44,283 bases of DNA from Escherichia phage B2, in sequence record NC_073069.1. The stretch is one strand, 5' to 3'. This document shows, piece by piece, positions 5,488-37,614 of this stretch. The translations under genes were made by a program, and so were the position numbers. The notes under the pieces are model-generated. The model saw only the letters and a list, made by a program, of their open reading frames with translations, did not search any database and was not told where the DNA came from. How positions within the stretch are numbered: position 1 is the first letter of the stretch; each line of letters begins with the position of its first letter.

Positions 5488-5520
5488 ATTGGTTGCATAA
5501 TCATATTGGTTGCATTATAT
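5488..5520 (+). promoter_or_regulatory. tandem ATTGGTTGCA motifs followed by TATATT
   Basis: attggttgca at 5488-5497 and 5505-5514, upstream of the 5569 gene. Confidence 0.4.
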
Positions 5521-6710: not shown

Positions 6711-7177
6711 AATTACTGATTTGCGATTTGGATGGCGTTATTAACGGTTCAAGCGATGCGCGTGCCGACTTGGTGCCTGGCATAAAAACTAAATCCACCT
6801 TTTGGGCGAAGTGGCACAAAGCGCACGTCCGCGAAGACCTGAACATGGATATGCTGCCGCTACTGCGCATGTATAAAGAGCAAGGCTTCGAGATCGCGTA
6901 TCTGACCAACCGGCAGCGAGAATGTTGGGACACCACCGCCGAGCAATTGGAGGTCTTCCCGGTAGGCCGGTTGTTTATGCGCCACATGTTGGACGACACC
7001 CCGCCGCCTGAGTTTAAAGCGTGCGCCGTGTTCAAAATGGTATGTTACGCGGACGTGTCTGAACTGGTCATCATTGAAGATTGCGAGAAGAACATCGCGG
7101 CAATTCGTCGGGCGTGTGGTGATTTGGTCCCGAAAATTTACGCAATAAACGTTGCAAAATTCACTTGCAACCAATAG
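6707..7177 (+). CDS. HAD-superfamily hydrolase-like protein (putative phosphatase/nucleotidase)
   Basis: ATGA overlap start; HAD motif I LLICDLDGVI, YLTNR and a later acidic motif IIEDCEKN. Confidence 0.5.
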   Translation: MKLLICDLDGVINGSSDARADLVPGIKTKSTFWAKWHKAHVREDLNMDMLPLLRMYKEQGFEIAYLTNRQRECWDTTAEQLEVFPVGRLFMRHMLDDTPPPEFKACAVFKMVCYADVSELVIIEDCEKNIAAIRRACGDLVPKIYAINVAKFTCNQ

Positions 7178-7838: not shown

Positions 7839-8414
7839 ATGTACGGCGAATATGAAATAACCGGTAAACAATTCCACCTGGCGGCAATGATTGCAAGCAT
7901 CGAGTTTGAACAGTGGCGATACAAGTCTGACGCGTGCAAGCAAAGCAGACTCGTCGGTGTGCTGGGCGAAATGTTTGCAGGCATGTACCTCGAAGGGCAG
8001 GCGGGCGGGCGTAGCTGTATCCCGCAAGGTTTGCTAATGCGTACCGGCCTGTTTAGCGCTAACACTATCGACCGCGGCGATATTATCATGGTTGGCAAGC
8101 GCAAGGTAAAATCCGGTCCCGACTTCCGCGAACATATGATTGATGCCGTCTGGACCTACGAGGTTAAGGCTACCAGCGGCATCCGTCGTGGGCTGGTTGA
8201 GGCACGTTGCGCTCGCGAGTATCTCACTCGTCGAGTTGCCGGTGTTATTCTGGTGGGGGTGTCGTTCGGGCAGCATAGCGCCAGCGGCGTGATTGAGGAT
8301 ATTGCGGAGCCATACGTGATAGTTAACGATTGGCCCCTGGTGGAAGTGGACGGTAAGGAATATTACGAAAGCCCGCTTGTGCGGCGCAAAATGGACTGGG
8401 AAAACTCAAACTAA
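7839..8414 (+). CDS. hypothetical protein, possible PD-(D/E)xK-like fold
   Basis: 191 aa with gaggga SD; GDIIMVG followed by TYEVK suggests a nuclease-like D...ExK arrangement, weakly supported. Confidence 0.4.
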   Translation: MYGEYEITGKQFHLAAMIASIEFEQWRYKSDACKQSRLVGVLGEMFAGMYLEGQAGGRSCIPQGLLMRTGLFSANTIDRGDIIMVGKRKVKSGPDFREHMIDAVWTYEVKATSGIRRGLVEARCAREYLTRRVAGVILVGVSFGQHSASGVIEDIAEPYVIVNDWPLVEVDGKEYYESPLVRRKMDWENSN

Positions 8415-8445
8415 AAATAGGGGCCATATGGCCCCTTATCCTTAT
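8412..8445. terminator. bidirectional intrinsic terminator between convergent genes
   Basis: aggggcc-atat-ggcccct hairpin flanked by A-run on one side and T-rich run on the other. Confidence 0.6.
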
Positions 8446-10265
8446 TTCTCCGCTAACTTACTTTCTAACGCCTCAACCTTCGCCGCCAAATGCTGAACAG
8501 TAGCGATGAGGTCAAGTAGCAGGACGTTTTCGTCTAATGCCAGAAACTCTTTACCCGTTGCGCTGGTGTACTTACGAACATACTGCGGGTCGATCTCTTC
8601 CAACTGCTGCGCGATAAAACCACGTCTGACCGTTTCCTTTTTGTCGTAGTTATAAACAAAGGAAGAGTATTCCATTGCCATAACGTTATCGAACGCAACT
8701 TGAGTGCCGATCCTGGCGATATCATGCTTCAGCGCCCTGTCGGACACAGGGGACTTTGAGAAAAGATAGTTAACAGTCCCGGAGTTGTTGCCAAAGGTAA
8801 TTTCGTAGCCTTCTGGGTTAAAGGTAGTATTTCGAATGATATCGCCGTTAGGCTGTACTCCTGACGCCATATCATAGTCAAAGACCTGCGAAATCATAGC
8901 GTGAGGGTGGGACGACGCCGATACGGGGTGAATCAACGCCCCGAACGAAATAAAGTTACGCCACCCGCCACCTGTCGTACCAGTGCCGCCGCCGACAAAA
9001 CCTACGTGACCCGCGTATTGACCGCTATTCCATGTATTCGCGAGGGTGACGTAGGTATTACCCGGCGACGCCGCGGTGGACGATGGATTCAGTCCTTTGT
9101 TGAAAATGATCTTGCCATCATATTTAAAGTCCCACGACGGCGAGGTCACCGGGTTGAGGGCGTTAACGGTCGCCAAACGGGTCCAGGCGTCTACGTTATT
9201 ACGGCCTTGAATCTGTAGCGACGTTCTGTATTTTTCGGCCCCAGCAACGATCACAGATGAGTCAAATCTACCGCCGTATACTTCTGTGCCATTCGCCGGA
9301 TCTGAAGCGTAATTATTGCGTAATCCCCAAAGTCCCACGTCATCAAGGCCGCGCCACACCCACCCTTTAGTCGCAGAGTCGAGAGGGTCGACTGGATCCG
9401 CTCCTACGCGAAGCGGTCCTGACGGCATAAGGTTAGCCCACGACGCACTTTTGTCCGCAAGCCCGGCGAGGTTGCCGGATTTAGTAAGCAGATTGTCGGG
9501 GTTTACGCTTTGCGCCCATTCTTCGGCCTGATCGCGAAATCCCTGCGCGGCAGTGCTGGCGGCTTGCGCTTCAGCCTTCGCGGCGTTGGCCTCGTCGCGA
9601 ATAGCGCCGGTGTCAGTCTTGATCTGGTTAGTCTGGTCTTTGATCGCCTGCGTATCTGCCTTAATCTGGTCAGTCTGCGTCTTGATGGTATTAGTGGCGT
9701 CGCGAATGCCTGCCGTCTCTGCCTTAATCTGATTGGTGGCGTCGCGAATACCAGCCGTCTCAGTCTTGAAGCCTTCGGCCTCATTGCGAAATCCGTGCGC
9801 TGCTGCTTCAGATGCCGCGGCTTGTTGTTGCAGGTTGCGCATTTCAACGGGGTCAACTTGCTTCATTAATTGCGACAGATAGCCCCAGGACATACCCTGC
9901 ATAACTTGCCCGTTCGGCAGCGTTACCGTGATTTCTTCTTCGTCTCCGAAGATTGCGCGCCAGTTGTTTTCGTCCGCGAGCATCAAGCGCAACGCTTTCT
10001 GCGCCTGGACTGTTACGCCCATCGTTGCCAGCGACATGGTATCGCGCTTAACGCCATCCCACGCGAGGCCAGTTGCCGTTGGGCCGTCGAACGGCAGCAC
10101 CAGCGTAAGCGCGGTGTCACTTTCGACTGACGCGATAGCAACAGTGTATGGGACTTGCCCCACTACCAGCGATAAGAAGTCGCCTGCTGTAAACAAGGTA
10201 AACGTCGTGCCTACCCCGACAACCGCCTTGCTGTTATTCGTTACGGATAGTGTACCCGCTGCCAT
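8442..10265 (-). CDS. tail fibre with C-terminal intramolecular chaperone (peptidase S74-like) domain
   Basis: Start at second ATG (10265) with gagga SD; central heptad-like repeats TAGIRDATNQIK; C-terminal SPVSDRALKHDIARIG matches the autoproteolytic chaperone signature. Confidence 0.8.
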   Translation of the reverse strand: MAAGTLSVTNNSKAVVGVGTTFTLFTAGDFLSLVVGQVPYTVAIASVESDTALTLVLPFDGPTATGLAWDGVKRDTMSLATMGVTVQAQKALRLMLADENNWRAIFGDEEEITVTLPNGQVMQGMSWGYLSQLMKQVDPVEMRNLQQQAAASEAAAHGFRNEAEGFKTETAGIRDATNQIKAETAGIRDATNTIKTQTDQIKADTQAIKDQTNQIKTDTGAIRDEANAAKAEAQAASTAAQGFRDQAEEWAQSVNPDNLLTKSGNLAGLADKSASWANLMPSGPLRVGADPVDPLDSATKGWVWRGLDDVGLWGLRNNYASDPANGTEVYGGRFDSSVIVAGAEKYRTSLQIQGRNNVDAWTRLATVNALNPVTSPSWDFKYDGKIIFNKGLNPSSTAASPGNTYVTLANTWNSGQYAGHVGFVGGGTGTTGGGWRNFISFGALIHPVSASSHPHAMISQVFDYDMASGVQPNGDIIRNTTFNPEGYEITFGNNSGTVNYLFSKSPVSDRALKHDIARIGTQVAFDNVMAMEYSSFVYNYDKKETVRRGFIAQQLEEIDPQYVRKYTSATGKEFLALDENVLLLDLIATVQHLAAKVEALESKLAEK

Positions 10266-10281
10266 AGCTGAATCCTCATAA

Positions 10282-10305
10282 ATTGGTTGCATTAATGGTT
10301 AAGCA
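10282..10305 (+). promoter_or_regulatory. ATTGGTTGCA motif upstream of the lipoprotein gene
   Basis: attggttgca at 10282-10291, about 55 nt upstream of ATG 10346. Confidence 0.4.
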
Positions 10306-10345
10306 GTGCAATACTAAAACTAAACCAAATATAGGAGATGATACC

Positions 10346-10630
10346 ATGAAAACTTTAATTATGATTTGTGCGGTTCTTTTGTCCGGTTGTGCCGACATGC
10401 CGTCTAAAATCTGCGACGCAACATACATGAATAGTGGTATGGAGTATTCCGTCCCGGTGTTTGGGGTCGCCGACTTTAGCGGACATAAAATGTTACGGGC
10501 GGGATACCCATTCAACTTCCAGTATGTGTCGGTCGACCACTTCAAAAGCACCACCTGCGAATACGCCCCGAAAGGGGCTTTTTATATCCCGTCCACGTTA
10601 ATTGCGGTCAGCGCAACTCCGGTGTTTTGA
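10346..10630 (+). CDS. lipoprotein (candidate receptor-blocking superinfection exclusion protein)
   Basis: aggaga SD then ATG 10346; signal peptide MKTLIMICAVLLSGC with lipobox LSGC; opposite strand to flanking tail genes. Confidence 0.55.
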   Translation: MKTLIMICAVLLSGCADMPSKICDATYMNSGMEYSVPVFGVADFSGHKMLRAGYPFNFQYVSVDHFKSTTCEYAPKGAFYIPSTLIAVSATPVF

Positions 10631-11253
10631 TACCCAGCGATGCTACCGGACCCAGCCTGCGTAGCGACTGCGTTAATGCGAGTGCCGCTTCCGTTGTCGT
10701 AAGCCCCTGCCCCCGCCGAGATCTGGATAATCTGCGGCTGACCTTGTACAAAGATCTGGATCAGAGTGGCGCCCATTAACATAGGTGATACCGCGTACTT
10801 ACCCGGCAGCGTCTGGTCTATGTTGATACCGCCGTTATTTCCGAAGCTGCCGACAGTGACTAGATCGGTGAGCACCTTGCTCTCGTTGGTGAGTATGCAC
10901 GTCCCACTGGCGTCCCAAATAGCAAACCCCCATCTCGGCAGCGGTTGCGGGAATCGCGCGAATATGTACGCCGTGACGGTAAAATGTGGGTTATTCTGAC
11001 CCTGAATGCTTCCGCTAAATATAATCCGGTTACCTGATCGTGACGCCGCCAGGACGCAACGGTTATTGGACCGCATGAACACCATCGCCGGATAGTTCGC
11101 TGGGATATCCACTGCGCCACTAGCCGTCTTATAATCCGCGCCTGCGTCAACTGAATTTGCGGACACCTTAGCATAGAGCACGAATGGCGTTGAGTTTGGC
11201 GTGACGAATGGGTTGCCGTTGTTGTTATCGATTAACGCGCCGAAGTTTGCCAT
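10582..11253 (-). CDS. hypothetical tail-associated protein
   Basis: 223 aa ORF in the tail gene block, G/N/S-rich; 3' end converges on and overlaps the lipoprotein gene. Confidence 0.45.
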   Translation of the reverse strand: MANFGALIDNNNGNPFVTPNSTPFVLYAKVSANSVDAGADYKTASGAVDIPANYPAMVFMRSNNRCVLAASRSGNRIIFSGSIQGQNNPHFTVTAYIFARFPQPLPRWGFAIWDASGTCILTNESKVLTDLVTVGSFGNNGGINIDQTLPGKYAVSPMLMGATLIQIFVQGQPQIIQISAGAGAYDNGSGTRINAVATQAGSGSIAGYQNTGVALTAINVDGI

Positions 11254-11255
11254 TT

Positions 11256-11558
11256 TTACGCTTTCTCCACAAAAACTACTACCTCACATTCTGATGCTGG
11301 GTAGTTTCCAATACCGACGCTGTTTGCGGCAGATACTGTTATCGTGTTCCCGCTGGCACGGATCGCCCGACCGACCGTAGTGCCGCCTACGTCCAGCGTA
11401 ACCGCAAAACCTACTTTCATACCTGACGGAATATCGAACGACCACGCCCCCGATGTTTGACCTTGTACCAGTTTAATAATTCCGACAACCGAAACGGGCT
11501 TGATCCCGTAGTTGTTTGGTCGCCCTTGCGCGTCCCATGTTGCGACACCGAAAGCCAT
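11256..11558 (-). CDS. hypothetical small tail-region protein
   Basis: First ATG with gggagg SD at 11558; the track ORF extends to a GTG at 11621 across a terminator hairpin. Confidence 0.4.
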   Translation of the reverse strand: MAFGVATWDAQGRPNNYGIKPVSVVGIIKLVQGQTSGAWSFDIPSGMKVGFAVTLDVGGTTVGRAIRASGNTITVSAANSVGIGNYPASECEVVVFVEKA

Positions 11559-11570
11559 GCTATACCTCCC

Positions 11571-11591
11571 TAAGAAAGGGGCCGAAGCCCC
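11571..11591 (-). terminator. hairpin with T-run downstream of the J-like gene
   Basis: ggggc-ttcg-gcccc on the minus strand followed by tttctt. Confidence 0.45.
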
Positions 11592-11595
11592 TGTG

Positions 11596-14500
11596 TTACC
11601 AATAACCTGTGATTTCACCAATTTGCACGCGGAGCACGCCGTTTCCGTCCCTAACGCTGATTTGCGTGTTTGTCTGTTTCATCCCGCCACCGTTACCGGT
11701 TCCCAGGTTGATAAACGTTCCGTCTTTCCCTAAGCGCCAACCACGCGAGTAACCGTCATAGTTATTCGATTGCAGCGTGTCCGTGATCTGCGCGAAGTTG
11801 ATAGTCGCGTCTTTGATGCGTGCCGTGTCAATATACACCGCGCCGCCGTCTACGATAAACGCGGACGAAAGCGACCCGTTAGATGGGTGCATGATGTAGA
11901 ACTGGTCCGCCTTGAACGCGATGCGGGATTTAACCGCGCCACCTTCCGCAACAACTGAAAGCAGCATACCGGCATCGTAGTAAGTCCCGTTATACGTCAC
12001 GCCAGCCTTAAGGCTATATGTGGCGCTGCCACCGGAGTGGTTAAACGAAGACGTCATCTTCTGCTCGATAGCTGCGGACTGCTGACCGAACTGTGCCGCC
12101 ACCTGGGTCTTGTACTCCGCAAGTGCGCCCGCCACGTCCGCCGTTGCCATTTGCACCTGCTGGATGGCGGCCTCCTGATCGGCGAACTTAGCGGCAACAG
12201 TTTGCTGGTACTGGGCGAACGCTTGTTCCTGCGTACTCTGCGCCGTCTGCAACGTGTGGATTGCCGCTTCCGCATCGTCAAGGCGCGTGCCGATCAACGT
12301 TTCCAGTTGAGCTACCGCCTTGTGGGCGTCCGCCGCCACGTTATACGCGACCGAGATTTCTGCATAAATACCCTTGTACTCGGCGCGGGCGTTGAACAAT
12401 TGCTGCGCGTCGGTGAGCATCGCCTCGTAAATACCCTGCGGGACCGTGTCGATTGCTTCCTGGAAGCGTTTACCATCCTCGGAAGTCAAGAACTCGTCAT
12501 CAAGCCCCTTCATGTACTCGTCAACTTTGTCACTCACCTGCCCTTCAAACGGGGCCGACCAGTCCGACAGGTTGCCGATTTTATCCGCTACACGGGCGCG
12601 CAACTGCTGGTAAATTCCGAACTCAAGCGACGTTTGCGCATAATCGGACCCAGGGTATGGGACGTTGGTCAGGAATTTCCATTCCGTTTCTCCCGTCTTG
12701 CGCACTTCTAGCTCGGTGTATGAAATATCCGTCGCGGCGTTGTTGTGGTTCCACTTCCACAAGATCTGGTGAAGGCCTGAAATCGCGTTGGTGATGATAG
12801 GTGCGTTAAGCCCGCCGAGACGACCTTCCACCGGCGTGATTTCGGAAGACACCCACGGGGATGAAATCTCACCCATACCGATTGCGCGGACGCGTGCCTG
12901 GTAGTTGCCGGAGAACACGTTAGGGATGTGCGCCCCATTCGACGCCGTGCGTGGGATATTCACCCAGTCGTTACCCCACTGGATTTCCATATTCTGAAGG
13001 CTTGTACGCCGCCACTGGATTTCATACACCACGGCATCCTTCACCGGCGGGAAAACAATATCCACGTTGGTGATTAGCTGGCCTTGCGATGAGATCTGCG
13101 ACGGGGTGATGGTAACAGATTCCGGCCCCTTCATTACGCCGTCTGGCACTTGCGTGAAGATACCCGGATCTAGACGCGCGCCATTATCAACGGCGTCATA
13201 TTTGCTGTCGTTGTATTCAATCCCGCGCACCGAAAAAGTGCAGGTAGAGTCGTCATACTCCAGGTCGGTGATGCGGAATTTCTGCAACTGGATATCGTCG
13301 CCATCAACGCAAAACGGTTGGTCTGGAATCGGGTCGGCATCCAGTGCGGTTTTTAGAGTGACCTTGTTGCCGTTGACGCTGGCGATCTCGCGAGTCTCCA
13401 CATTACCGCTATCGGTGCGCACCAGGAACTTATCGCCGGGTCGGAACGTGATTTCGCTGTCCGTGTTCAGCACGGTACGCGTCCCAGGGTCCGACAACAG
13501 CCGACCGCCGCGAGTCTCGAATCCGCCAGAAATGTTTGTATCCGCGATCGCGACTACGCTACCCGGAATAAAGAATAGCCCCTCCATGCCAACCTTAAAA
13601 CTAACTTGCTGGTCAAGCTGGTTGGATATTAGCGCCCAATGCCCGCGGCGTTGCGCTTCGGATTCGCGCGTACAGCCGATCGCCGTAATATCAAGACGGT
13701 TAATCTTATGGCGGCGCACCAGTTCGACGCGCTGGCCTGTCGCGATGGCGTCATCGTAGTGGTTTTTCGGGTTGCCGTATGCTACCGCGAATGTGGAATA
13801 GCGCGTTTTCTGGCTGCCAGATGCGTAGTCGAATCGCCCATCAATAACAGATGCGTTGGTAATAGTGTGTGACACCGCGGCTACCGGTTGGTCACTGACG
13901 ATATTCAACATCTGGTTTCCCCACCAGGTCATCCCGGCGAAGATGGCAGCTAAATCCTTAAGCACGGTCCATGCGTCTGTCTGCGACTGGATGTACATAT
14001 CATTCTTAAAGCGGATTTCTCGACCACCGTTGCCGTCGCTGACCAACTGATCGCAGCGCTGCGCGATCTGGTAGAGCGCGTACCGGTTCAGCATTTGCGG
14101 TTTGATCCGGCGACCGAGGCCGAAGCGTTCAGTAATACAAATATCGTACCAGTGCCACGCAGGGTTATCCGTCCATGCGCGTTTGAACGTACCATCCCAG
14201 TCGCCCGAATAGGTATGATTAATCGGGTCGTAGTTGTTCGGGATCAACACCTTGCGACCTTTGCACTTAATGGACACGCGCGGGATGTTCTGGAACGCTT
14301 TAGCGTCGAACTCCACGAACAACAGCGCGGTTAGCGGGTAACGCAGGCGGGCGTCGATAATCTCAGTTATGGATTGCACCTGGATACCATTAACCACTTT
14401 CGCCGATGTGGAGTCTGCCGTTATGCGGTGCACCTCCACGCGCCAGCCGGTGTTAACGTTCGGCGGTAGCTCGATGCGGTGGTCGCGCTCATATAGCGAC

Positions 14501-15015
14501 ATTGTTTTACCAACGGCGGCGAATCTGAACTCACGCGGGTCGGCGTTATCCGTATACACAACGATTTTATAGTCGATGCGCCCACCCACCAGGTCGCCGT
14601 TGTCTTCGTTTGTGTACAGGGCCGGAATGCCGATTCTAATGCGCACGGCGTCAAGACTGGTGTCGTTAATCTGGCGCACCCACGGCGTGCCGTATTCCAG
14701 TTTTACGCCTACGGTTTGCTCACTTTCCACCGCGGAAAATCCGTGAATCACGTCCTGGTGCTGTGTGCCGGGGCGGAACTCCACGCGCGCGCCGGGGAAG
14801 TTTTCGGATCGGTCGGCGTTCTGGATCGGTGTGCCGTCCAGATAAACGCGCTGCCGTAATTCGTTGGGGTCGGGAATGCCTTCGAACTCACCTTCACCCA
14901 GTGCGAGCAAGATGCGGATTTTAGCCAGCGAATGCAGGCTATCGGGCGTCTCCTGTGGGGTGTGCTGTTTGCCACCGCCGCCTTTATGGCCCGCGACGTC
15001 GTATACAATCGTCAT
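11596..15015 (-). CDS. tail tip host-specificity protein (lambda gpJ-like)
   Basis: 1139 aa; N-terminus HKGGGGKQHTPQETPDSLHS resembles the lambda J N-terminus; follows the gpI/K/L/M-like genes. Confidence 0.85.
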   Translation of the reverse strand: MTIVYDVAGHKGGGGKQHTPQETPDSLHSLAKIRILLALGEGEFEGIPDPNELRQRVYLDGTPIQNADRSENFPGARVEFRPGTQHQDVIHGFSAVESEQTVGVKLEYGTPWVRQINDTSLDAVRIRIGIPALYTNEDNGDLVGGRIDYKIVVYTDNADPREFRFAAVGKTMSLYERDHRIELPPNVNTGWRVEVHRITADSTSAKVVNGIQVQSITEIIDARLRYPLTALLFVEFDAKAFQNIPRVSIKCKGRKVLIPNNYDPINHTYSGDWDGTFKRAWTDNPAWHWYDICITERFGLGRRIKPQMLNRYALYQIAQRCDQLVSDGNGGREIRFKNDMYIQSQTDAWTVLKDLAAIFAGMTWWGNQMLNIVSDQPVAAVSHTITNASVIDGRFDYASGSQKTRYSTFAVAYGNPKNHYDDAIATGQRVELVRRHKINRLDITAIGCTRESEAQRRGHWALISNQLDQQVSFKVGMEGLFFIPGSVVAIADTNISGGFETRGGRLLSDPGTRTVLNTDSEITFRPGDKFLVRTDSGNVETREIASVNGNKVTLKTALDADPIPDQPFCVDGDDIQLQKFRITDLEYDDSTCTFSVRGIEYNDSKYDAVDNGARLDPGIFTQVPDGVMKGPESVTITPSQISSQGQLITNVDIVFPPVKDAVVYEIQWRRTSLQNMEIQWGNDWVNIPRTASNGAHIPNVFSGNYQARVRAIGMGEISSPWVSSEITPVEGRLGGLNAPIITNAISGLHQILWKWNHNNAATDISYTELEVRKTGETEWKFLTNVPYPGSDYAQTSLEFGIYQQLRARVADKIGNLSDWSAPFEGQVSDKVDEYMKGLDDEFLTSEDGKRFQEAIDTVPQGIYEAMLTDAQQLFNARAEYKGIYAEISVAYNVAADAHKAVAQLETLIGTRLDDAEAAIHTLQTAQSTQEQAFAQYQQTVAAKFADQEAAIQQVQMATADVAGALAEYKTQVAAQFGQQSAAIEQKMTSSFNHSGGSATYSLKAGVTYNGTYYDAGMLLSVVAEGGAVKSRIAFKADQFYIMHPSNGSLSSAFIVDGGAVYIDTARIKDATINFAQITDTLQSNNYDGYSRGWRLGKDGTFINLGTGNGGGMKQTNTQISVRDGNGVLRVQIGEITGYW

Positions 15016-26390: not shown

Positions 26391-26418
26391 TTGGTTGCAG
26401 TATATTGGTTGCACACCA
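26391..26418 (+). promoter_or_regulatory. tandem TTGGTTGCA motifs upstream of the + strand moron cassette
   Basis: ttggttgcagtatattggttgcacaccaaca; the 18-nt ATTGGTTGCACACCAACA also occurs upstream of the 37075 gene. Confidence 0.45.
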
Positions 26419-26441
26419 ACAGAGATATGAAGGAAGACAAA

Positions 26442-26756
26442 ATGGCTAACATGACCGTAGCAACTCCAGTAGACGCCGCAATGGCCCGTTTCAATAAAGC
26501 TACCGTAGCGAATACCTTTACCTTTCACGCAATGCGTAACGCGGAAGCGCTGAATCTGTGCCAGAGCATGAATGCATCTGAAGCGGCAAAAGCGGCGATC
26601 AACTCCGCGACATTCGATAATCCGGCTTGCGGCCTGGTCCCGGCATCTTTCATAAACGCGCTGGTCGAAGCCTTTAACGATTTCATGTGCGTCGATGCCG
26701 TTGAAGCGGTATGTGCTCGCTTAACTTCCACCGGCGGTAACATCAAATTCAACTAA
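26442..26756 (+). CDS. hypothetical protein (moron gene 1)
   Basis: gaaggaag SD then ATG 26442; about 105 aa, alanine-rich, no recognised motif. Confidence 0.45.
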   Translation: MANMTVATPVDAAMARFNKATVANTFTFHAMRNAEALNLCQSMNASEAAKAAINSATFDNPACGLVPASFINALVEAFNDFMCVDAVEAVCARLTSTGGNIKFN

Positions 26757-26795
26757 ACCAATCGGGGCGAAAGCCCCTAAAATTAGGACACAAAA

Positions 26796-27560
26796 ATGAG
26801 ACTGACGAAAGATATTAAAAATCAGATTCTGGCTAACATTCTGCGCGATCACGAAATCGCATCCGAAGCCAAACAAATCATGATGGACTCTCGCGACCTG
26901 GCGTACGCAATCACGCTGGACTGTATGCCGGACGGCATTCGCACATTCGCCGCGCTACGCGAGCATATCCTGCTAATCCGCGATGACCAGTCGCAGATGT
27001 ACGGCGTCAGCGTATACACCAACAAGGCGACGTATAGTTATAACTCCGACCGCCCGAAGGGTATCGGCAGCGTCTATAACGCCACCTTTGAAATCAACGC
27101 AGGCGGCAATGTTCGCACCTTGTCATTGAGCGGCGACGGTCGCCAACACCGCATACATCGCGGGTACTGGGAAGAGAAATATATGAATAAGCTCTCGCCT
27201 GATCTCGGCGATATCGTTCCGGGGTTCGAGACAGTTATGCTGGCTTCAGTGTGTGAAGTGGACGAGGACGGGAAAGCGCTGCCGATATATCTCCCTCGCG
27301 GTCGCGTAGACTACCCGGCAGATCATGATTTCTGCAAGCGCCTGGACCGCAACGACAAGGCACGTCGCGAGTTGCGCGCGAAGTATGACGCGTTCAAACT
27401 CACCGTTACCGGCTTGCTGGATATGCACAATACGGACAAGAAGCTGATTAAGGTATGGCCTAAAGTTGAGCAATTCATCCCGTACCCGGACAAGCCAAAA
27501 TCCACGGCGGTGGCGCTGGATGTGAAAACACTCAACGAGATTTGCGGCATTCCGCGCTAA
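26796..27560 (+). CDS. hypothetical protein (moron gene 2)
   Basis: 254 aa ORF, no recognised motif; followed by a bidirectional terminator. Confidence 0.5.
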   Translation: MRLTKDIKNQILANILRDHEIASEAKQIMMDSRDLAYAITLDCMPDGIRTFAALREHILLIRDDQSQMYGVSVYTNKATYSYNSDRPKGIGSVYNATFEINAGGNVRTLSLSGDGRQHRIHRGYWEEKYMNKLSPDLGDIVPGFETVMLASVCEVDEDGKALPIYLPRGRVDYPADHDFCKRLDRNDKARRELRAKYDAFKLTVTGLLDMHNTDKKLIKVWPKVEQFIPYPDKPKSTAVALDVKTLNEICGIPR

Positions 27561-37498: not shown

Positions 37499-37614
37499 GG
37501 CAACCAATACGACCGACTAAAAGCACGCAAAATGGCAACCAATGCGCGCAGAATTTAATCATTTACCGATATGGGGATCCCCATAACGGCAACCAATGCA
37601 CGCAAAATTTAATC
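37499..37614. repeat. GGCAACCAAT direct repeats flanking a 16-bp perfect palindrome
   Basis: 30-bp repeats at 37531-37560 and 37585-37614 (27/30 identical), a third core copy at 37499-37508, palindrome tatggggatccccata at 37570-37585; overlaps the primase stop. Confidence 0.6.

Follow-up and report, generated by a model that had tools for sequence, protein, structure and literature searches.

The gene at 10346..10630 on the + strand of the Escherichia phage B2 genome very probably codes for Cor, the superinfection-exclusion outer-membrane lipoprotein of FhuA-dependent siphophages, in the allelic form that is carried by the FhuA-using members of the Dhillonviruses. The window, by which we mean the whole stretch of DNA that was analysed (44,283 nucleotides, record NC_073069.1), is a Dhillonvirus genome.

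The cor gene and its protein family

The + strand open reading frame that had been noticed in a first-pass annotation of the window was found again. It opens with an ATG at 10346, closes with a TGA at 10628-10630 and has a product of 94 aa. The start of the gene had been placed at 10282 in that annotation, and this has to be corrected to the ATG at 10346: all homologues open at the methionine of this codon (MKTLIMI...), the Shine-Dalgarno sequence AGGAGA, as read from the DNA, lies at 10334-10339 on the + strand, 6 nt 5' of the ATG, and the putative promoter is located upstream. The Shine-Dalgarno sequence is kept as AGGAGA or AGGGGA among relatives. A TTG at 10283 is the mechanical start of the frame; it was rejected because the Shine-Dalgarno sequence precedes the ATG and the ~60 nt upstream form a conserved non-coding block to which we assign the promoter. 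An antisense frame at 10276-10554 (92 aa) and other short overlapping frames were likewise put down as mechanical, being without family support and lying opposite a conserved gene.

The N-terminus of the predicted protein reads MKTLIMICAVLLSG followed by CADMPSK, and comprises Lys2, the hydrophobic core LIMICAVL and then a lipobox. The LSGC lipobox described earlier is indeed present (L-S-G-C, 10379-10390, + strand), and its cysteine, Cys15 (codon 10388-10390), is invariant in the 121 members of the family alignment. Residues 1-14 would constitute the signal peptide and Cys15 the site of lipidation; the conserved mature Cor would comprise residues 15-72, which include Cys23 and Cys71. The Lol-avoidance rule is an established guide to lipoprotein sorting from the +2 residue, and the alanine at +2 of Cor predicts sorting to the outer membrane.

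A receptor-blocking lipoprotein similar to Cor or Llp had been proposed from position and architecture, with no claim of sequence homology. We found that homology to Cor can be demonstrated directly. The NCBIfam equivalog model NF047972 ('phage exclusion lipoprotein Cor') matched residues 2-72 with 59.7 bits against a cutoff of 31 (E 2e-16), and PHROG 1119 ('Cor superinfection exclusion protein') matched residues 1-72 with an E-value of 5.1e-28; no Pfam model matched the protein. B2 Cor is 52% identical to T1 Cor (50.7% by tblastn over residues 1-71, E 4e-14), 44% identical to N15 Cor (gene 24) and 42% identical to HK225 Cor. When 50,697 phage records were searched by tblastn, 248 contained a match, including T1, N15 gene 24 and the HK-type lambdoid Cor genes. 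A profile search of 5.8 billion proteins returned 312 relatives, and most of the named ones go under 'cor protein' or 'phage exclusion lipoprotein Cor'; close relatives have orthologues with the annotation Cor or super-infection exclusion protein. Some tblastn alignments in relatives extended over residues 1-94 or 1-80. These cross a stop codon and were discounted, since direct translation gave frames of 72 aa; the alignments run past the stop of the relatives because a gene on the opposite strand conserves the DNA there.

In the 121-member alignment, C15, C23, G53 and C71 are invariant and G14, G31, V36, A52, P55, F56, V61 and F66 nearly so. All twelve residues are present in B2 Cor, as is the AGYPF core motif of the mature part. 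The Cor proteins of T1, phi80, N15, HK022 and mEp167 resemble that of B2 in identity (42-52%), the lipobox, the two conserved cysteines, the sequence AGYPF(N/S)(F/W) and the length of the conserved part. Lambdoid Cor is carried by temperate phages, whereas B2 is a virulent Dhillonvirus, a genus for which carriage of cor is already documented. Within the genus, the cor products of bob, Kente, Kenya-K19, SSL-2009a, YD-2008.s, Envy, McMelon and JLBYU60 show 85-99% identity over residues 1-72, and the FhuA-type relatives have essentially the same promoter blocks, ribosome-binding site, signal peptide and downstream hairpin as B2. The exception is length. Cor proteins are typically 72-78 aa long, those of the T1/N15 type among them, and end 1-4 residues after the last cysteine, whereas B2 Cor has 94 aa, 23 of them after Cys71, and a unique added tail; this atypical length is due to the change of a TAA codon to TAC. 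Thus, by every sequence-based criterion tested except typical length, the B2 gene is cor.

Loss of the stop codon and the read-through tail

A comparison with 14 other alleles, together with an alignment to McMelon, placed the ancestral TAA stop at 10562..10564 on the + strand, where B2 has TAC (Tyr73). All 14 of these Dhillonvirus cor alleles, when translated, gave products of 72 aa that end in ...TTC(E/K)-TAA one base before a GCCCC-N4-GGGGC hairpin. B2 is the only one of the 15 distinct alleles with TAC, and Kente differs from it by the single TAA/TAC base within 72 bases around the stop. In B2 the hairpin (GCCCC-GAAA-GGGGC followed by TTTTT, 10565..10583, + strand) was identified by a terminator call and by the minimum-energy fold as an intrinsic terminator between the convergent genes; its stem is invariant among relatives and its loop varies (GAAA, TTTC, TTCC, GGAA). 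The convergent 223-aa gene of the relatives stops three bases beyond the far side of the hairpin and does not overlap cor. In B2, a further 22 codons (YAPKGAFYIPSTLIAVSATPVF) are read, which take the frame across the hairpin and over the last 49 nt of the convergent gene (10582-10630). The overlap with that gene, estimated earlier at about 49 nt, is therefore exactly 49 nt, and exists because a single A-to-C change turned TAA into TAC. The earlier view that the gene has the same architecture as Llp and Cor genes holds for its position and its lipoprotein nature; the overlap is a by-product of the stop loss and not a trait of the family.

The read-through tail proper (residues 74-94, APKGAFYIPSTLIAVSATPVF; 10565..10627, + strand) is specified by the hairpin DNA and by the strand opposite the 3' end of the 223-aa gene. 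No PHROGs or NCBIfam profile matched it, and no homologue aligned to it, including those from the profile search of 5.8 billion proteins; in that collection the close homologues are all 72-73 aa long. The tail was modelled as disordered, with a pLDDT below 50. The exact 94-aa protein occurs in two records only, B2 and CEC_Kaz_2018 (MK728541.1). Both genomes have 44283 nt and are separated by 4030 substitutions and no indels. CEC_Kaz_2018 is identical to B2 in three blocks (8442-9520, 10336-11763 and 26401-27554), contains at least one N and departs from B2 at positions, among them some in the proposed cor promoter, where 14 other relatives do not vary. Its sequence has the look of a consensus assembled with a reference as guide and not of an independent genome. 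Given the same length, the lack of indels and the identity over 10336-11763, the two records are probably not independent witnesses of the 94-aa form. We conclude that the tail is most likely a recent, unselected accident.

Products of non-stop mRNA are tagged and degraded by the tmRNA pathway. In the B2 allele, a transcript terminated at the hairpin would have no stop codon, so that Cor production could be lowered or abolished, while transcripts that read through would give the tailed protein, which might itself be impaired by the stop loss. It is conceivable, although we think it unlikely, that the B2 allele is crippled in this way by a recent loss-of-function change of TAA to TAC, or that TAC is a base-call error in the deposited genome; either would be compatible with the gene being cor. 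In the crippled version, ribosomes would stall on the hairpin-ended transcripts and tmRNA would tag their products, and the full-length product would bear a hydrophobic 22-residue tail. The occurrence of TAC in one allele of 15, a single base away from Kente, is what would be expected from such an event, as are the 72-73 aa of the close homologues, the tail without homologues or confident structure, the position of the terminator upstream of the new stop and the confinement of the long form to two probably non-independent records. Yet a tail is not necessarily harmful: in one Cor clade, of at least 83 sequences, the last cysteine is naturally followed by 16 further residues, and a singleton Cor homologue designated P0107 has a tail of 25 residues. 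Moreover, T5 Llp with a C-terminal His6 tag still formed a complex with FhuA (PMC9586334). The hairpin is also short (5 bp) and may be suppressed by translating ribosomes, and the remainder of the cor gene, its promoter and its ribosome-binding site are intact.

Two further readings give the extension a role. It is very improbable that Cor output in B2 is set by termination (non-stop mRNA, tmRNA tagging, degradation) against read-through (the 94-aa lipoprotein), or that the tail alters the engagement of FhuA; if this were true, it would be a natural single-base retuning of a receptor-blocking protein. We regard it as very improbable that the 22-residue extension has a selected function, such as partner specificity or a coupling to the convergent receptor-binding gene through the overlap. 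The extended frame is open and ends cleanly at a TGA, and some Cor lineages do have C-terminal tails, but the B2 extension is a single-base event in a single lineage, with a sequence dictated by the opposite-strand gene and the terminator, no conservation at the protein level and no predicted structure. Nor is a stretch of 22 codons without a stop improbable by chance ((61/64)^22, or about 0.35).

The homologue P0107 (100 aa, from a JGI metagenome) has itself a tail that resembles the outcome of a stop loss, ...TTCK followed by YPTSFEYNFAPAGFFVAWRKYAL, which suggests that read-through tails recur sporadically in the Cor family. On the - strand, the same base change converts the UUAUUCG that follows the hairpin in Kente to GUAUUCG in B2; this would slightly weaken any termination ahead of the tail fibre gene.

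The receptor-binding locus and the proposed upstream promoter

Over positions 8400-11700, the records nearest to B2 are CEC_Kaz_2018, Kente and Kenya-K19 (93.6-96% identity), followed by McMelon (89%). The location of the lipoprotein gene between the lateral tail fibre gene and the next gene of the tail locus, as first described, was borne out. The lateral tail fibre gene (8442..10265, - strand) codes for a C-terminal endosialidase-chaperone (Peptidase_S74) domain (Pfam PF13884, E 3.2e-11; PHROG 1980, E 8.8e-121). On the other side are two genes for receptor-binding-locus proteins, one of 223 aa that is convergent with cor (10582..11253, - strand; PHROG 425, E 7.7e-67) and one of 100 aa (11256..11558, - strand; PHROG 557, E 1.5e-31). 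Beyond these, the list of open reading frames contains a J-like central tail fibre or tail tip protein of 1139 aa (11596..15015, - strand), whose gene is annotated in relatives as host specificity protein J or tail protein. Read along the - strand, the order is J-like gene, 100-aa gene (phrog_557), 223-aa gene (phrog_425), hairpin, cor in antisense, and lateral tail fibre gene. The succession J, ~100 aa, ~225 aa and cor is common to T1, aaroes, N15, HK225 and the Erwinia phage Midgardsormr38. The convergent orientation of cor in B2 is also that of T1 and aaroes, and T1 in addition has an annotated rho-independent terminator between the convergent genes.

The genes after J have been described as a receptor-binding locus plus its cognate exclusion gene (BASEL, PMC8594841); against this receptor-binding view, a 2026 paper proposes that locus proteins of the 223-aa and 100-aa types may act in exclusion. 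The extended cor cassette coincides with the use of FhuA in the BASEL Drexlerviridae and Dhillonvirus phages (PMC13164509), and FhuA dependence is reported for the Dhillonviruses bob, Envy, JLBYU37, JLBYU60 and Teewinot (PMC10373560). The cassette of B2 is close to that of bob, with 99% identity for Cor and 98% for both the 223-aa and the 100-aa protein. By comparison, the 223-aa protein is 50% identical to T1 orf31 and 56% to N15 gp23, and the 100-aa protein 50% to T1 orf32 and 74% to N15 gp22. From the 98-99% identity to the bob cassette, the FhuA dependence of bob and the coincidence of the cassette with FhuA use, the terminal receptor of B2 is very probably FhuA. It is extremely unlikely that this small lipoprotein serves some other purpose, for instance as the outer-membrane subunit of a spanin or as a host-fitness factor of the Bor kind: only the generic features of small size and a lipobox fit, whereas the protein belongs specifically to the Cor family, the gene lies within the receptor-binding locus with the lysis genes at ~34.2-35.3 kb, and the searches of Pfam, PHROGs and NCBIfam gave no match to a spanin or Bor family.

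Other alleles occupy the receptor locus in some relatives. In a comparison with 10240-10390 of B2, the SO1/slur05 type (a 73-aa lipoprotein) and PTXU06 (an 89-aa protein) were found to keep the promoter blocks and the ribosome-binding site. The 73-aa lipoproteins of the SO1/slur05 type share their first 16 residues (MKTLIMICAVLLSGCA) with B2 Cor, and their mature part is unrelated or distantly related, which points to a recombination boundary right after the lipobox. In the SO1/slur05-type and PTXU06 alleles, the subsequent genes of the receptor locus are on the same strand as the lipoprotein gene.

The gene had also been credited with a sequence motif of its own upstream, and ATTGGTTGCA is present as an exact match at 10282..10291 (+ strand). 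Its recurrence in the B2 genome is not due to chance: there are 9 exact copies and 9 with one mismatch where 3.07 would be expected, and 0 of 100 shuffled genomes reached 18. The core TTGGTTGC occurs 22 times (about 1.4 expected), with 9 of the 22 copies in the 5% of the genome that is not annotated as coding, and upstream of four + strand genes (those starting at 2611, 5569 and 7242, and cor) its end is 56-57 nt from the ATG. Upstream of cor, the blocks AATTGGTTGCA and GTG(C/T)AATACTAAAACT are invariant in 14 Dhillonviruses, and the spacer of ~15 bases between them varies at ~8 positions. The last bases of ATTGGTTGCA help to form a -35-like hexamer, TTGCAT (10287-10292, + strand), which matches 3 of the 6 consensus positions; 17 nt further on lies a putative extended -10, TGcAATACT (10307..10315, + strand). 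A consensus promoter scanner that needs 4 of 6 matches per hexamer left this site below threshold, the -35 having only 3 of 6. Since the blocks are conserved across genomes and the motif recurs, we infer that TTGCAT, the 17-nt spacer and TGcAATACT constitute the cor promoter, with transcription starting near 10322.

Copies of ATTGGTTGCA were located on the + strand at 2546, 5488, 5505, 7178, 10282, 26390, 26404, 33999, 36564 and 37219, and on the - strand at 7166, 37097, 37128, 37499, 37534, 37588, 40391, 43197 and 43213. The motif mostly heads non-structural transcription units and is often found 18 nt before a -10-like hexamer (TATAGT, TATATT, AATACT) and 56-57 nt before an ATG. Tandem copies occur at 5488/5505, 26390/26404 and 37499-37588, and the copies at 7166/7178 form the inverted repeat TGCAACCAAT-ag-GTTGGTTGCA. 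From this distribution, the motif may define a class of promoters specific to the phage, or may serve as operator for one of its regulators; no relevant publication turned up when the full text of the literature was searched for the motif sequence. If the assignment of the promoter is right, cor would be driven by the same class of promoter as the non-structural genes and would oppose the late tail operon. Such a class fits an exclusion function that is needed early, as is that of T5 llp.

Between cor and the start of the divergent lateral tail fibre gene there are 80 nt. The tail fibre gene would thus owe its transcription either to late transcripts that read through cor in antisense or to a promoter within cor, where a weak promoter-like site, CGGACA-16-CATAAT, is present on the - strand (10385-10358). 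Late in infection, cor could be silenced by such head-on transcription.

Predicted fold, proposed mode of action and meaning

An AlphaFold2 model built from the 121-sequence alignment has a five-strand beta core at residues 23-71, with a pLDDT of ~80-85. When this model was compared by Foldseek with 350,542 PDB chains, the best match was 8a60_B, T5 Llp from the FhuA-Llp crystal structure, with a target-normalised TM-score of 0.65, an rmsd of 2.8 A over 58 columns, 28% identity and a Foldseek probability of 1.00, but an E-value of 0.044. The likeness is structural: phmmer against the PDB sequences gave no significant match to the same Llp chain (E 0.28, residues 3-47 only), and the homology search against both families that had been called for earlier was thus positive for Cor and negative for Llp. 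The PDB sequence search found no solved structure for any Cor. Its best match, the designed Kelch-repeat protein 7q58_A, reached 1.4e-4 by summing over six repeats, each with an E-value above 300, was partly driven by the read-through tail and was rejected as spurious.

As is predicted for B2 Cor, T5 Llp is a small outer-membrane lipoprotein encoded beside a receptor-binding gene, with a disulphide near the termini comparable to the probable one of B2 Cor, and the two proteins share the short motif C-[DE]-A-x-Y-M after the lipobox; they differ in that T5 belongs to another phage family and uses another receptor-binding protein (pb5). Llp binds to the periplasmic face and the plug of FhuA, which causes extracellular loops 7 and 8 to close inward on the site where the phage binds, and its Cys11-Cys58 disulphide constrains the termini (PMC9586334). 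The equivalent cysteines of mature B2 Cor are residues 9 and 57. Two recent papers give the Llp fold to other Cor proteins, and one of them predicts docking on the periplasmic side of FhuA (PMC13164509; 2026 preprint). Published opinion gives Cor and Llp a common fold and a probably common mechanism (PMC13164509, PMC9586334, 2026 preprint), although the molecular mechanism of Cor has not yet been elucidated according to the 2026 preprint, and Cor is reported to need additional outer-membrane proteins (Arguijo-Hernandez 2018, as cited in PMC13164509). By modelled fold and context, B2 Cor would work like T5 Llp; by sequence it is not an Llp.

By analogy, the following sequence of events may be proposed. 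The cor gene would be transcribed from its own sigma-70-type promoter with the recurring ATTGGTTGCA, against the surrounding late tail genes. After export of the precursor, Cys15 would be lipidated and signal peptidase II would remove the signal peptide, leaving a beta-rich core of 57-58 residues that is probably clamped by a Cys23-Cys71 disulphide. Homology and fold suggest that this core would bind FhuA in the manner of T5 Llp, at the plug and the periplasmic face, and would allosterically make the extracellular face unusable for the receptor-binding proteins of B2 and for other FhuA-dependent phages. The infected cell would thus be protected from superinfection, and progeny would not be wasted on cell debris.

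Databases and literature already record that FhuA-type Dhillonviruses carry cor, where the gene lies and how it probably works, so that the finding is correct but ordinary; the residual interest lies in the stop-loss allele and the recurring promoter motif. The GenBank records of B2 and CEC_Kaz_2018 file the protein as 'hypothetical', and it should be named Cor. The stop loss calls for caution in any reuse of the B2 allele, since the conserved functional unit is the first 72 codons. Cor and the two adjacent genes predict the use of FhuA, which helps in choosing phages for cocktails and in anticipating cross-resistance. For the genus as a whole, the conserved promoter, ribosome-binding site and signal peptide, joined to interchangeable mature domains, provide a landmark for Dhillonvirus exclusion genes.
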